From the NCBI GenBank assembly GCA_043811375.1, contig JBDRNJ010000006.1:54296-118295 (forward strand): a DNA stretch of 64,000 bases. Reading direction: 5' to 3'. Made by a program: the position numbers and the translations under genes. Under the pieces are notes generated by a model. It did no database searches and was not told where the DNA came from. It saw only the letters and a list, made by a program, of their open reading frames with translations. Positions 52,805 to 62,917 of this stretch are shown here, one piece after another (position 1 is the stretch's first letter; each line of letters starts with the position of its first letter). Source of the stretch: a bacterium (GTDB lineage Bacteria > Zixibacteria > MSB-5A5 > GN15 > FEB-12).

Positions 52805-54406
52805 TCAGTTACCGACTCCCTTTGGCAGGCTGGATAACTGCTGGTAGGTGAATGGGAGCGTCTTGTGTGCAAAGACCCAGTATGAGCGGTCATAATACCA
52901 ATCGTACCTGGTTTTCCCTATGAGACGGTACTGGTCTATGAACCTTGGGTCAGCTACCAAGACCTTGTGTTTCGTGTAGAAATTCGGTTCCGCCAAAGAA
53001 AACGACACAAGCACGACAATTCCTGGCCGTCGTGAAAAGAAGTACTCCTCTGACCAACCCTGTTTTACAATATGAATGTCCGTCAGTGACTTCGGATTGA
53101 TATCTACCGTGGCCAGCTTGGAGTAATAGGGAGTTGCTCCTACGTCACTGATAGCCAATAGCGTCTCGGCCGGAACGTTGTCTCTCAGCCACTCTCCTAA
53201 TGCAACCAGTGATTCCTGAGTACTGGTTTCATTTCTGATTGCATCGAATCTCAATAACGCTACAAACGAAAGATTGAGAACTACGAATGCAGTGCATAGT
53301 GCCAAATGCGGGAGTTCTCTTTTGTATGACATGGACAGTGCGCGTGGGAGGAGCGCTCGCAGCACAGGAAGCCCTGCAATTAAGAGCAGCGGAATGAGCG
53401 GAACGAAGTACCGCATGCCAGGCATCCAGTCTACGAAATTTACATAGAGGGACGCATATATTACCAGGAGAGCGAAGATAGTGTTTTCAAATAGCGGACG
53501 GTTATTTTTGGAGGAACACGGAATTAAGACCCCGATTAGAGCAACTACACCAAGCGCAATGTAGTAATAGCCGAGAGGTGCAAAATAGCGATTCTGGATC
53601 AGGAAGAAAAACTGGATATTGATATTCCACGCGTGCAACAGTGACTGGCCATCGCCACCCTTTGATAAGAGAGGTGTTGGAAAAATCTCCCCGAAATACA
53701 TGAGCCTCCAAGATTGATAAACAAGCACCAGCAAGGCGAAAAGTCCGAGACCTGCCAGCATCCACCTCATACGAGAATATGAGTGGTAGCCATTCATAGG
53801 TTTCAAGTAACGTGCAAGAATGAGATAGCCCACGACAGCTGGATAAAGCAGAAGGCCCTCTGGTCTACATAAGGTAAGAAGTGTGCATACTACGGCCAAA
53901 GATATCGACCAGACAGGACGTCCGTCGTGAATGATGCGATCGACACACAAGGTGGCTATTAGTATGAGAAGTGAAAAGAGAGGGGTCTCCATTCCAGAAA
54001 TCGAATACAGAACGAAGGGTCCGGAGGATGAAAGCAGAAGCATTACCAACATTTGCTGACCGGCAGAAAGTCGGGGGCGTATGATGAGCCAGAACACGAG
54101 TAGGTTCAGTATTCCAAAAAACAGGCCAAGATGCGGAACGAAAGAGGGTAAATCCAAGCCAAGTCGCACAGCGAGAGAGCAGAGCAGAATCCAAAGGAAG
54201 TTCGTATACCCCTCAACGGGAGTCTCTCCGGCATTGAATGTAAGCCCATTGCCGAGTGCAAGATTCTCGGCGTACCTGAACGAGATGTATGAGTCGTCCG
54301 GCAGGAACGGGGTAAGCTGTAAGGCAAGATACGTAAAAATCAGAACGCTGATAACGAGCACCAGGCGAGAAATGAGGGCCTTGTTACCGGACGGGGTGAA
54401 ATCCAT
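52805..54406 (-). CDS. Polytopic membrane protein, GT-C glycosyltransferase-like
   Basis: DDSYISFRYAEN..G.GLTFN..VEGYTNFLW, SGMETPL, RPEG motifs; many TM helices. Confidence 0.75.
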   Translation of the reverse strand: MDFTPSGNKALISRLVLVISVLIFTYLALQLTPFLPDDSYISFRYAENLALGNGLTFNAGETPVEGYTNFLWILLCSLAVRLGLDLPSFVPHLGLFFGILNLLVFWLIIRPRLSAGQQMLVMLLLSSSGPFVLYSISGMETPLFSLLILIATLCVDRIIHDGRPVWSISLAVVCTLLTLCRPEGLLLYPAVVGYLILARYLKPMNGYHSYSRMRWMLAGLGLFALLVLVYQSWRLMYFGEIFPTPLLSKGGDGQSLLHAWNINIQFFFLIQNRYFAPLGYYYIALGVVALIGVLIPCSSKNNRPLFENTIFALLVIYASLYVNFVDWMPGMRYFVPLIPLLLIAGLPVLRALLPRALSMSYKRELPHLALCTAFVVLNLSFVALLRFDAIRNETSTQESLVALGEWLRDNVPAETLLAISDVGATPYYSKLATVDINPKSLTDIHIVKQGWSEEYFFSRRPGIVVLVSFSLAEPNFYTKHKVLVADPRFIDQYRLIGKTRYDWYYDRSYWVFAHKTLPFTYQQLSSLPKGVGN

Positions 54407-54598: not shown

Positions 54599-55018
54599 AT
54601 GTTGACCGCTAAAATGAAGTGGGCCGGGGGGCTGAAATTCGAAGGCACCAGTGCCTTTGGCCACCTGATTATCACTGACGGAGCTAAAAAAGTCGGTGGA
54701 GAAGAAGCCGGTTACAAACCGACCGAGTTGCTGCTGTATAGTATCGCCGGTTGCACCGGGATTGATGTCGTCCGTATTCTCGAGAAACAACGTCAGAAAC
54801 TGACCTCTCTTGAGATTGAGTTGATTGCCCACCAGGGCGAGTCTTACCCGAAACCATTTCACACTATCGAGGTCAAGTTCATCGCTCGCGGGAAAGAGCT
54901 TGACGAGAAAAAGTTGGCGGCAGCTATCGAGTTGTCCGAGAGCAAGTATTGCGTGATCAGCCAGACTATCGAGAGCGAGACCAAAGTAGTCACCAGTTAT
55001 GAAATTGTACCGGAATAG
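54599..55018 (+). CDS. OsmC/YhfA family protein
   Basis: GYKPTELLL..IAGCTGIDVV..LEKQR, SESKYCVIS (two conserved Cys). Confidence 0.9.
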   Translation: MLTAKMKWAGGLKFEGTSAFGHLIITDGAKKVGGEEAGYKPTELLLYSIAGCTGIDVVRILEKQRQKLTSLEIELIAHQGESYPKPFHTIEVKFIARGKELDEKKLAAAIELSESKYCVISQTIESETKVVTSYEIVPE

Positions 55019-55071: not shown

Positions 55072-55473
55072 ATGGAAGTGAACCAAAGAGAGAAGCTGGC
55101 CTGCCGGCGGGAGTCGCAACTGCCGTTTGATACGGTCGTAAATAATCTGCAGGAGCAGTCGGCTGCCAATCAGTTCCGGGTACTGGCGGTGCATAATGTA
55201 CAAAAGACGCTGGCCGAGAAGGGACTGGAAAGAGAACCCCTGACAATCATCGAGGTTTGTAATGCCGGGTTTGCTCACCAGGCACTGCAGCAGGCAATTG
55301 AAGTTTCCCTGTTTATGCCCTGCAAGTTTTCAGTATATACTGAAGGTAAGAAGACGGTCGTCCTGCTGGCACGCCCCGGCATGATTTCAGCTATGCTGCC
55401 GGATGCCGAGCTGGAGAAACTGGCCGGGGAGGTCGAAGACAGGCTGAAGAAGGTTATGGAAGCTGCAATCTGA
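55072..55473 (+). CDS. DUF302 domain protein
   Basis: FRVLAVHNVQKTLAEKG, IIEVCN, LFMPCK. Confidence 0.88.
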   Translation: MEVNQREKLACRRESQLPFDTVVNNLQEQSAANQFRVLAVHNVQKTLAEKGLEREPLTIIEVCNAGFAHQALQQAIEVSLFMPCKFSVYTEGKKTVVLLARPGMISAMLPDAELEKLAGEVEDRLKKVMEAAI

Positions 55474-55495
55474 CGGCAGTGTGAGCAGCCCGATT

Positions 55496-55666
55496 ATGAA
55501 GAAGAAAACAATATTATTCGTCGCTGTAGGCGGTTTGCTTGGTTTCGGCCTGTCTTTTTTGTATAATTCCTTCGGGTCGACCTGACAGCTCATGTGTAAT
55601 CCCTACCTGACAACGGTGGTAGGGGCGCTGGCCGGTGCGGTCATGTCGGGTGGAAAACGAGGTTGA
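55496..55666 (+). CDS. Putative selenoprotein, DUF6132-like two-TM peptide (UGA at 55583-55585 read as Sec)
   Basis: MKKKTILFVAVGGLLGFGLSFLYNSFGST-U-QLMCNPYLTTVVGALAGAVMSGGKRG; frame stays open past the UGA and ends 4 nt before the next ATG; SECIS-like hairpin 55601-55624. Confidence 0.7.
55601..55624 (+). promoter_or_regulatory. Candidate bacterial SECIS element 1
   Basis: CCCTACC/GGTAGGG stem; loop starts UG, 22 nt after the UGA. Confidence 0.5.
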
Positions 55667-55670
55667 CGGA

Positions 55671-55868
55671 ATGCCGATCTACGAATACAAGTGTATGGAT
55701 TGTACCAACGAGTTTGAAGAACTTGTTGGTGTGGGAGATTCTGCGCCGCCCTGCCCCTCCTGCCGGTCCGGCAATACCGTCAAGATGATCTCGTTGATTT
55801 CCGCAAGGGGTATTACCTCCGGCTGTTCCACCTGTGTGCCTTCCAATTGCTCAAGCAAACACACGTGA
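55671..55868 (+). CDS. FmdB-family zinc ribbon protein (may extend to 55874 as ...KHT-Sec-Gly)
   Basis: MPIYEYKCMDC..FEELV...CPSCRS, Cys-rich tail; stop context TGA GGT TGA. Confidence 0.88.
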   Translation: MPIYEYKCMDCTNEFEELVGVGDSAPPCPSCRSGNTVKMISLISARGITSGCSTCVPSNCSSKHT

Positions 55869-55883
55869 GGTTGACCTGATTCC

Positions 55884-55897
55884 CCTGCGGTCGCAGG
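55884..55897 (+). promoter_or_regulatory. Candidate bacterial SECIS element 2
   Basis: CCTGC-GGTC-GCAGG hairpin, loop 20 nt after the UGA at 55866. Confidence 0.5.
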
Positions 55898-55954
55898 CAA
55901 CAAGTTGCTTTTATCAACACAGTGTAATTTTCAGTTAGCACAGTATGAGTCCCT

Positions 55955-56102
55955 GTAGGTTGGTGTTCCCAGGGAGGTGGCGAAGCCACTTTCACTGACC
56001 GCGAAACCCGACCATAGCTTGACATGACCCCACCCCACCAAGGAGATGTCGGGTTTCTCATTCGTCCGTCTGACGCCGGACTCACTCGGAACGCCGACCT
56101 AC
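55955..56102. repeat. REPIN-like inverted doublet
   Basis: GTAGGTTGGTGTTCC...GGAACGCCGACCTAC outer arms; GAAACCCGAC/GTCGGGTTTC inner arms. Confidence 0.65.
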
Positions 56103-61528: not shown

Positions 61529-62917
61529 CTAATATGTGGGATAAAGGGTTAGGCCGTCAATCGTGCAGTTCGAAAGTAGGCAGTTTAATAGTCGGCGCTT
61601 TTCCGGACCGCATTGTGTAACGTAAAGGGAATGCGCATGTTGGGCAAGTTCGAGAATTTTCGAACCCTGGTCGACGTAATCACGGTCGGCGTGCTCGAGT
61701 CGTGACAATTGGTCTTGCACCTGATTCTGTTCCGTCCTCCACCGTGATGACAAATCACTCCAGAAACCGTCGTCAATGACCCCGTCCAGTCTGTCCTCAT
61801 ACGCTTTGTCCAGCTTGGCCTGAAGGTGGTCAAGCTTGCGTCTCAACTTCTTGGTCTCAGACTCCCGGAACACTTTCTCGTCATCGTAGCTGCCTCTGAG
61901 GGCTTGCACAATCCATTCAGCAACCTCACTATCGATCTCAATTGCTTTGACCAACTGAGCCAGCTTGCTGTCGAGCGATTCTTCCCTGATATATGGCTGA
62001 TTACATTTACCGCGGCCACCAGTGCAGTGGTAGTAGACATACTTGCCCTTCTTGATCTCCGCTGTGATTTGACATCCGCACCGTCGACACCGGAGCAAAC
62101 CGGTAAATGCGAAGTGTCGCTTCTGTAATCCCTGCTTCCCATCTTTGTGTAGCGCCTGCTGCACACTGAAAAACAACTCCTGCGTAATGATTGATTCGTG
62201 GTTGCCGGAGTACTGGATTCCCTTCCATATGAAGTCGCCGTAATAAAACGGGTTTTTCAGGATGGACTCGACCATTCCCTTCGACAGTTTCTTACCCGTC
62301 CTGCTACGCAGGCCCATTTCATAAATGGTATCTCTGAGTTGGGCCAGAGAGTATTCATTAGTCGCGTATAACGTGAACATCTTGTGAATGTAGAGAGCCT
62401 TATCTGGGTCGATGTCAACCAGACGCGTTGTCTGGTTGTTTAGATAACCAAGCGGTGCCTGATGTGGCCAGTTGCCTTGACGGGCTTTCTCGCGCAGCCC
62501 TTTCGCGACCTCTTCAGACAGATTGTCAATGAAGTTCTTTGCCAGTACAACCTTGAGGCCATGAACGAGTTTGGCGTGAGAGTGGCTATTCTTACTGATA
62601 GTCTCGTTTTCTTTTACCAAGTGGATTTCAACATCAAGGTCTTCCAGAAGTAGATAGTCACGGAAGTTCCGATATAGCCGGTCGGTTTTCTCAACCAGGA
62701 TTATCCTGACTTCTCGGTTGGTCTTGAGATACTCTACCATCTTGCCAAACTCAGACCGACCGGCCACTTTCGCAGTCTCCACATCAGTGAACTCTTGGAC
62801 GATGTCTATTTCGTGCTTGGAAGCATATTCACGGAGCAGCTTCTGTTGGGCGGGAATAGAAAAGCCTTCCTTCTCCTGCTCCTTCGATGAGACACGAGCG
62901 TATAGAACGGCCTTCAT
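61529..62917 (-). CDS. Large serine recombinase (integrase)
   Basis: YARVSS catalytic motif, EKTDRLYRN, APLGY, NPFYYG, zinc ribbon CRRCG..YYHC..C, coiled coil. Confidence 0.93.
   Translation of the reverse strand: MKAVLYARVSSKEQEKEGFSIPAQQKLLREYASKHEIDIVQEFTDVETAKVAGRSEFGKMVEYLKTNREVRIILVEKTDRLYRNFRDYLLLEDLDVEIHLVKENETISKNSHSHAKLVHGLKVVLAKNFIDNLSEEVAKGLREKARQGNWPHQAPLGYLNNQTTRLVDIDPDKALYIHKMFTLYATNEYSLAQLRDTIYEMGLRSRTGKKLSKGMVESILKNPFYYGDFIWKGIQYSGNHESIITQELFFSVQQALHKDGKQGLQKRHFAFTGLLRCRRCGCQITAEIKKGKYVYYHCTGGRGKCNQPYIREESLDSKLAQLVKAIEIDSEVAEWIVQALRGSYDDEKVFRESETKKLRRKLDHLQAKLDKAYEDRLDGVIDDGFWSDLSSRWRTEQNQVQDQLSRLEHADRDYVDQGSKILELAQHAHSLYVTQCGPEKRRLLNCLLSNCTIDGLTLYPTY

Follow-up and report, generated by a model that had tools for sequence, protein, structure and literature searches.

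The small gene and its in-frame TGA

The window, i.e. the whole stretch of DNA analysed here, is 64,000 nucleotides in length and corresponds to positions 54,296–118,295 of the forward strand of contig JBDRNJ010000006.1 (GenBank assembly GCA_043811375.1), which comes from a bacterium of the Zixibacteria. Its forward strand carries one small gene (55496–55666), whose reading as a selenoprotein gene is the subject of this study. The gene starts with ATG at 55496 and ends with TGA at 55664–55666; another TGA, located in frame at 55583–55585, was assigned to selenocysteine (Sec) at residue 30, based on the conservation of the aligned site and on the Cys column of the DUF6132 family. Translated in this way, the product is 56 residues in size, MKKKTILFVAVGGLLGFGLSFLYNSFGST-U-QLMCNPYLTTVVGALAGAVMSGGKRG followed by the stop (MKKK…FGST-U-QLMCNPY…GKRG). 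It contains two hydrophobic helices, TILFVAVGGLLGFGLSFLY and LTTVVGALAGAVMS, and the motif G-S-T-U-Q-L-M-C-N-P-Y sits between them. The next gene, which encodes an FmdB-type zinc-ribbon protein, starts with ATG at 55671, leaving a gap of 4 nt. An earlier note, written from the sequence alone, had pointed out the small open reading frame (ORF), both helices, the GST-UGA-QLMCNPY segment and the stop 4 nt before the next gene; all of these are seen in the sequence.

Owing to the use of UGA for selenocysteine, such a gene would be hidden from gene callers. In the public protein library, P0082 and P0145 are N-terminal fragments of the small family that end at …GST, and three metagenome gene calls (P0009, P0012 and P0047) have W at the Sec codon. 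The public sequencing runs X1, X2, X3 and X14 each contained at most 0.15 of the sampled words and gave no transcript over the small gene; they yielded DNA contigs of relatives and one 192-nt contig from an RNA library, which covers 55725–55900 only.

When 61 related genomes were searched in six frames with the read-through peptide, 42 of them matched at E ≤ 1, and 30 of these loci were studied in detail. The aligned site is TGA in 27 of the 30 loci, within the motif G-[ST]-T-U-x-x-[MLIT]-C-N-P-[YW], and TGT, giving a Cys form, in two (L026 and L031). The remaining locus, L032, is a decayed copy, which has lost the motif by deletion and has an in-frame TAA. The 29 intact sequences were combined into one profile (A1) and searched across 285 genomes of the phylum; the small gene was found in 149 of them, with 150 matches in total. 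The in-frame TGA is present in 114 matches (113 genomes), whereas 32 contain no stop; among the others, three have TAG only, which is the normal stop at the ORF end, and one has TAA, which is the decayed copy. Within the window's family, the gene occurs in 87 of 107 genomes; one of these genomes has CGA (Arg) and one has Cys at the Sec site. A second family of the same order has the gene in 28 of 33 genomes. Other families of the class have mostly Cys forms, and one further family has GSQU in two genomes and GSQC in their relatives. The decayed, Arg and Cys copies of the window's family are L032 (genome G008), L044 (G132) and L045 (G095), respectively; selB is kept in all three. The small family is conserved in more than 100 related sediment bacteria, and the recurrence of TGA at the aligned position is more than chance.

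Coding is conserved downstream of the TGA. Over the 19 codons behind it, the mean column identity is 0.74, 0.80 and 0.58 at codon positions 1, 2 and 3, respectively; the corresponding values in front of it are 0.67, 0.79 and 0.48. In the 27 TGA-bearing loci, the frame remains open to just before the start of the FmdB gene. The natural homologues P0002–P0007 have Cys at the aligned site, within the motif GSSCxxxCNP, and the Cys-coding homologues are each one protein of 52–61 residues. Homologues with TGA at the Cys-aligned site and with conserved downstream coding, for which the earlier note had suggested to search, do exist.

The same note had proposed, from a family pattern, that the protein is DUF6132-like and that its UGA lies at the conserved Cys of that family. 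The pattern fits GCxSGTCPITSNPYISTxYGAxxG, the consensus of 40 database proteins of the DUF6132 type. The hidden Markov model check against DUF6132 turned out negative: the read-through peptide gave no match to the Pfam model PF19628 at E ≤ 10 and found nothing relevant in Pfam (E ≤ 10) or NCBIfam (E ≤ 1), and a genome-wide scan with PF19628 (gathering cut-off 23.2 bits) gave no match. Three of the 29 family members match PF19628 at E ≤ 1, the best with an E value of 3.5e-4. Searched against 1.84 billion representative proteins, the A1 profile gave 310 matches at E ≤ 1e-3. With descending score, they run from close Cys forms (GSSCxxMCNP) through intermediates (GGxCPLTCNPY) to many classical DUF6132 proteins (GCxxGxCPITSNPY). 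When 40 database relatives were scanned with Pfam, 18 matched PF19628 at E ≤ 0.01, 10 of those above the cut-off; intermediate Cys forms (such as GGxCPLTCNPY) that pass it are P0030, P0113 and P0140.

Profile-profile comparison of A1 with 40 classical DUF6132 proteins (A3) by hhalign gave a probability of 99.5% and an E value of 3.3e-22 over 64 columns; the A3 set was taken from the matches of the A1 profile, and several of its members pass the Pfam cut-off. As aligned, Sec lies on the second invariant Cys of DUF6132, the C of G-T-C-P-I-T-S-N-P, and the part behind the TGA pairs with the second DUF6132 helix. Because the comparison puts Sec on this Cys, we consider the DUF6132 placement right. 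Thus, distant homology and the proposed position of the UGA stood, whereas formal membership of the Pfam family did not. Judged from these alignments, the small family would best be described as a distant, Sec-containing sister group of DUF6132. Like DUF6132 proteins, its members combine a similar length with two glycine-rich hydrophobic helices and a central G-x-C-x-x-x-x-N-P-Y segment. Different from the classical C-x4-C pair (GCxxGxC), the small family has U/C-x3-C; the first classical Cys is replaced by F or L, then G, and a new Cys is located at +4 from Sec.

Selenocysteine decoding and candidate insertion elements

The genome assembly is 3.56 Mb in size (92 contigs, 95% complete). Genome searches found selA (503 bits), selB (324 bits, compared to a cut-off of 242) and selD (389 bits, with one in-frame TGA inside), and one of the 51 tRNAs is a tRNA-SeC. 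The selD gene is itself a selenoprotein gene, reading …SCSG-U-ASKLAP (locus L006, 74133–75059 of contig C27 of genome G000). At E ≤ 1e-20, the FdhA model TIGR01553 did not match the genome. The most frequent stop is TGA, which terminates 1031 of the 2237 ORFs of at least 250 codons (46%), and a reassigned code is therefore excluded. Taken together, the UGA that is kept in orthologues and aligned with Cys, the coding conserved downstream and the presence of selA, selB, selD and tRNA-Sec bear out the selenocysteine reading of the earlier note. Of the three things it had named as speaking against that reading, an isolated TGA, a non-conserved sequence behind the TGA and a lack of selB or selC, none was found. 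The small gene is very probably a genuine selenoprotein gene.

In the selenocysteine insertion sequence (SECIS) model given in the available part of PMC13188914, the apical loop lies 16–37 nt after the UGA and has G in its first two positions. The candidate SECIS of the small gene, hairpin 1 (55601–55624, forward strand), came from folding and synonymous resampling; it contains one 7-bp stem and one 10-nt loop, UGACAACGGU. CCCTACC (55601–55607) pairs with GGTAGGG (55618–55624), and the loop TGACAACGGT starts 22 nt 3′ of the UGA and reads UG…, in agreement with the model. This is the hairpin that the earlier note had described, and its stem length, loop and distance are as stated there. Across the Sec genes, the hairpin starts ∼15–18 nt 3′ of the UGA, with the apical loop at 20–28 nt. 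As a control for stability, codons were redrawn synonymously with the protein kept the same, and 42 nt from +10 were folded. The hairpin region of the 27 Sec genes is more stable than such resamples (mean z −2.1), with p < 0.05 in 16 and p < 0.2 in 24 of them; in the same test, the two Cys genes gave z values of −0.85 and −0.13.

Hairpin 2 (55629–55643, forward strand; TGGCC / loop GGTGC / GGTCA) is the only helix of the RNAalifold consensus in this region. All five pairs are present in 17 of the 27 Sec genes, and the mean is 4.41 pairs, compared to 3.48 upon synonymous resampling. In selD of the same genome, one 7-bp stem with a GUU loop ∼20 nt after the UGA was recognized by eye; the minimum-energy fold differs. 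An Rfam scan of 55400–56000 at E ≤ 10 gave chance-level matches alone and no SECIS family. Of the two hairpins, hairpin 1 is likely the SECIS of the small gene.

Proposed fold and role, and alternative readings

AlphaFold2 prediction on A1 gave helices at residues 3–25, 30–33 and 36–54, with a mean pLDDT of 68. The small protein is predicted to be a helical hairpin, in which Sec30 and Cys34 are located on the short connecting turn, one helical repeat apart. Among the 29 sequences, the N-terminal tail contains on average 2.97 Lys and Arg residues and no acidic residue; the connecting segment contains 0.1 charged residues, and the C-terminal tail is mixed in charge. Because the N-terminal tail is rich in Lys and Arg and the connecting segment is nearly uncharged, the lysine-rich N-terminus is probably cytoplasmic.

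Five Cys relatives are natural fusions, in which a DUF6132-like hairpin of the CxxxC type is joined to a thioredoxin domain at the C-terminus; the thioredoxin model PF00085 scores above its cut-off in P0088, P0094 and P0141 (E values 1e-14 to 7e-17) and below it in P0024 and P0135. A bona fide DUF6132 gene is present in 7 of the 285 genomes of the phylum. In five of these seven loci, it adjoins a same-strand gene for a thioredoxin-like lipoprotein or a membrane-anchored thioredoxin-like protein; these neighbours were identified by Pfam in L058 and L059 and judged orthologous from sequence by eye in L061–L063. The fusions and the neighbourhood suggest a redox role of the Sec/Cys pair. Provided that the protein is a selenoprotein, we lean, by a narrow measure, towards a redox-relay function.

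We propose that the UGA at 55583–55585 would be recoded to Sec by SelB and tRNA-Sec, probably with the assistance of a downstream hairpin, most likely that at 55601–55624. The product would be a membrane helical hairpin with Sec30 and Cys34 on the short connecting segment. At or in the membrane, these two residues may form a redox-active selenylsulfide/selenol-thiol pair, which may give reducing equivalents to, or take them from, partners that have a thioredoxin fold or are rich in Cys/Sec. The products of the co-transcribed genes, namely DUF302, the FmdB zinc-ribbon protein and an OsmC protein of the peroxidase type, would act jointly with this pair in the present clade. The account as a whole, a recoded 56-residue membrane selenoprotein that belongs to a sister group of DUF6132 and presumably uses a redox pair, is in our judgement quite probable.

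Two kinds of known systems are comparable to the small protein. The membrane thiol-disulfide relays CcdA and DsbD also possess a membrane-embedded Cys pair, which is linked or fused to thioredoxin-fold domains. However, they have six or eight helices, compared to two here, and electron transfer is a presumption for the small protein; the likeness is by description, and no homology is claimed. Like the small protein, the bacterial membrane selenoproteins in Table 1 of PMC13188914 have Sec paired with a Cys or Ser close by, either within a transmembrane segment or next to one. Different from those, the small protein has no sequence match among them, is much smaller, has U-x3-C and stands in another neighbourhood.

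Several observations weigh against the proposed account. Its support is sequence-based, with both the selenium content and the translation past the UGA being predicted, and OsmC and DUF302 are little informative on the substrate. The missing PF19628 match has been mentioned above. Three Sec orthologues, L033, L034 and L037 (UQLTSNPY, UPLTINPY and UQVASNPY, respectively), have no second Cys, so the U-x3-C pair is not universal; in motif, these three are closer to classical DUF6132. selB is kept in all 10 genomes tested in which the small gene is missing, decayed or present in its Cys or Arg form, and loss of the small gene is thus not tied to loss of Sec decoding. With a fixed register, the covariation of hairpin 1 is weak: 65% of cells are paired, compared to 63% for shuffles, of which 54 in 500 reach that level. 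A simplified SECIS pattern (stem of at least 5, loop of 3–14, G in the first two places, distance of 16–37 nt) occurs in 21 of the 27 genes, whereas 17.6 are expected, so this pattern alone is not discriminating. Both tests are weakened, since the stem shifts its register from one species to another. Hairpin 2, of which the loop starts with GG, is 48 nt away from the UGA and thereby beyond the usual range; either element may be the one bound by SelB.

If the TGA were an ordinary stop, the product would be a 29-residue peptide with a single helix, and the conserved sequence 3′ of it would act as an RNA element or as the leader of the FmdB gene. The calls P0082 and P0145 do stop at …GST, TGA is the commonest stop of this genome, and the stretch 3′ of the TGA does fold. 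However, conservation behind the TGA is highest at codon positions 1 and 2 and lowest at position 3, which is the pattern of a translated frame; this frame is open nearly to the FmdB start in the 27 TGA loci, the Cys homologues are translated whole, and the downstream part aligns with the second DUF6132 helix. We regard an ordinary stop as very improbable. Still less can be said for a gene in decay, with the TGA being due to nonsense mutation or to a sequencing error, or for a TGA that is read as Trp or Gly. L032 is truly decayed and P0009, P0012 and P0047 carry W at the codon, but the presence of TGA at the same site in 113 genomes and its use as stop in 1031 of 2237 long ORFs already contradict this explanation, and a tRNA-SeC is present; we give it next to no credence.

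With the selenoprotein reading preferred, the main rival to the redox role is the binding of metal or metalloid. In this case, Sec30 and Cys34 would bind a soft element (Hg, Cu, Cd, As or Se) in a Mer-like manner, with no electron relay, and the protein would function in uptake, export or sensing, as with small Mer-type membrane proteins. The G-x-x-[CU]-x3-C motif between the helices could chelate metal, and the FmdB partner has four zinc-ribbon Cys residues and a Cys-rich tail. PMC13188914 names several selenoproteins of membranes or metal handling (a putative mercuric transport protein, the Cu/Zn efflux transporter SO_0444, a cation ATPase) and states that Sec may be a metal ligand in some families. 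On the other hand, the conserved cluster contains no metal-resistance or transporter gene, the partners to which Cys relatives are fused or next to which they are encoded have a thioredoxin fold rather than heavy-metal-associated (HMA) or Mer domains, and the second ligand is missing in the three orthologues mentioned above. We rate metal binding as rather unlikely and retain the redox pair as the preferred role of the putative selenoprotein.

The FmdB-type neighbour and the conserved gene cluster

The FmdB-type zinc-ribbon gene (55671–55874, forward strand) is probably a second selenoprotein gene, with Sec 1–3 residues before the true stop, as judged from the tails of its orthologues. The protein scores 52.3 bits with TIGR02605 (cut-off 31.3) and 53.9 bits with PF09723 (cut-off 34.4) and contains one N-terminal CxxC…CxxC ribbon. 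It would end with …CSSKHT-U-G-stop; the TGA at 55866–55868, the proposed C-terminal Sec codon, is followed by GGT and by the stop TGA at 55872–55874. The first stop is TGA in all 35 parsed orthologues, and 1–3 sense codons lie between it and the second stop; this set of 35 leaves out L014, L020, L022, L028 and L044, in which the start pattern was missed, as well as the second FmdB paralogue of L013 and L048–L050, which are distant. The residues before the TGA are G-F-[STGRK], except that the group to which the window belongs has [KRQ]-[FH]-T, and those behind it are G, GS, GV, AS, ASC, ATC, AG, SI, GAT, GI or AN. Both zinc knuckles are CxxC in 35 of 35 orthologues. The FmdB protein of L044 ends with CFT-U-G-U.

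One SECIS-type hairpin (CCTGC / loop GGTC / GCAGG), identified by covariation in the orthologues, is located at 55884–55897 on the forward strand; its loop begins 20 nt 3′ of the TGA. Hairpins with a GGU loop (mostly GGUC) and a stem of at least 4 bp follow the TGA in 29 of the 35 orthologues, compared to 2.7 of 35 expected from mononucleotide shuffles; all but one lie 12–23 nt after the TGA. For the covariation analysis, 26 sequences were anchored on the first GGTC, and pairing was not required. The six flanking pairs are 83% paired, compared to 50% in shuffles, and none of 500 shuffles is as high; all six pairs have compensatory changes, the covariation score is 0.87 versus 0.23, and slid registers are 29–47% paired. 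MAFFT/RNAalifold on the FmdB 3′ regions left the hairpins unaligned and predicted 0 pairs. The fdhF SECIS of Escherichia coli likewise has GGUC as its apical loop.

Among the best 120 database hits of the FmdB profile (P0158–P0277), 98 end with a …GF[STG]-like tail (…[FY][STGRK]), consistent with truncation at TGA. By their names, these hits come from several phyla and groups, among them GN15, Zixibacteria, Calditrichota and Bacillota. Because so many of the best hits look cut at TGA, the C-terminal Sec form of FmdB may be widespread. P0209 ends with GFGCGN and resembles a Cys form. Wider FmdB relatives were retrieved with the FmdB protein as query, and their records are titled as Deltaproteobacteria or Thermodesulfobacteriota metagenome-assembled genomes. 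The distant FmdB genes in L048 and L049 read …CSSCH-TGA-RE-stop and …CGTCH-TGA…, respectively, and maybe represent another near-C-terminal Sec variant.

A Sec form of FmdB has been published. In the Global Ocean Sampling survey (TIGR02605), as described in the available part of PMC2398784, Sec is located in a CxxU zinc knuckle, and the FmdB entry in Table 1 of PMC13188914 is a UxxU form. The window protein belongs to the same zinc-ribbon family, TIGR02605; different from the published form, which has Sec in the knuckle, it has CxxC knuckles and the putative Sec at the C-terminus. The arrangement of Sec, 1–3 residues and stop is like that of the 'UXX-star' families (NF041114 and NF041211), as far as these are described in the available part of PMC13188914. 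The FmdB protein matched neither of these two NCBIfam models at E ≤ 1, and no NCBIfam selenoprotein model matches it.

The two putative selenoprotein genes stand in a cluster with two other genes of the same strand. The first gene of the cluster (54599–55018, forward strand) encodes an OsmC-family protein in its Cys form (PF02566, 69 bits, cut-off 27.5); the second (55072–55473, forward strand) encodes a DUF302 protein (PF03625, 61.2 bits, cut-off 23). When the 30 loci were searched by tblastn with the window neighbours, 25 had OsmC upstream on the same strand; DUF302 immediately precedes the small gene in 23, and the FmdB gene immediately follows it, in the same orientation, in all 30. The order OsmC-DUF302-small gene-FmdB is conserved. 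Among five genomes without the small gene, one has no match to the FmdB profile, three have weaker matches to the N-terminal ribbon only, and the fifth (G027) has kept OsmC and the Sec form of FmdB. Since five genomes are too few, co-loss of the small gene and FmdB cannot be argued from them. In the G027 locus, L064, OsmC stands directly before a Sec-tailed FmdB (…GSGFS-U-SS-stop), and both DUF302 and the small gene are missing. A pattern search of the distant FmdB loci L048–L054 found no DUF6132-like gene.

The FmdB protein with its putative Sec tail and the small protein might form a direct, so far undescribed two-selenoprotein relay. The FmdB Sec tail recalls the GCUG tail of thioredoxin reductase. 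In such a relay, the flexible, Cys-rich tail of the cytoplasmic zinc-ribbon protein, ending in Sec, would supply the Sec-x3-Cys of the membrane hairpin with reducing equivalents or with a chalcogen or metal that it has bound, and the hairpin would assist the detoxification of peroxides of the OsmC type in anaerobic bacteria of sediments. We consider this idea attractive, but speculative and distinctly unlikely. Complex prediction with the natural Cys form of the small protein (A7) and FmdB (A8) gave scores of 0.00 and 0.00, from which nothing follows. If the relay were true, the hairpin would be the smallest known membrane thiol/selenol conduit and, by extension, DUF6132 proteins would generally be minimal membrane partners of thioredoxin-fold proteins.

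The small selenoprotein family is probably undescribed; as a family it would be new, although the kind of system it belongs to is well known. The 2026 inventory lists 119 selenoprotein families with domain identifiers (PMC13188914 Table 1); none of these families is PF19628 and none has a U-x3-C motif. NCBIfam release 20.0, which holds the selenoprotein-specific models of that table, gave no match to the small protein. In the full-text literature, no description was found of a DUF6132 selenoprotein, a small UXXXC membrane selenoprotein, a DUF302- or OsmC-linked selenoprotein or an FmdB form with C-terminal Sec. Within their available parts, deep-Sep (PMC12013277), the Olavius symbiont study (PMC1976440) and BSepDB (PMC13326102) do not mention such a protein, and the available part of Table S1 in the BSepDB supplement has no entry with MCNPY, GSTU or DUF6132/PF19628. 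Different from the small family as read here, DUF6132 is absent as a selenoprotein family from the selenoprotein sources examined, to the extent that these are available. Among the database hits of both families, there is no record with U; such records may have been dropped when the library was built.

If these readings are right, the selenoprotein inventory gains one family and probably two. Annotation would be systematically wrong for both: the small protein is missed or cut to 29 residues, and the FmdB protein loses its last 2–4 residues, with the likely catalytic one among them. For DUF6132, the small family would give a first functional lead, in that the second conserved Cys may be replaced by Sec and thioredoxin-fold partners are linked to the family. 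As a 56-residue peptide, the Sec/Cys membrane hairpin is feasible to synthesize and could be used for redox chemistry.

Apart from the cluster, the window contains one ORF of 462 residues on the reverse strand (61529–62917), which begins with MKAVLYARVSSKEQ. Its product resembles a large serine recombinase.

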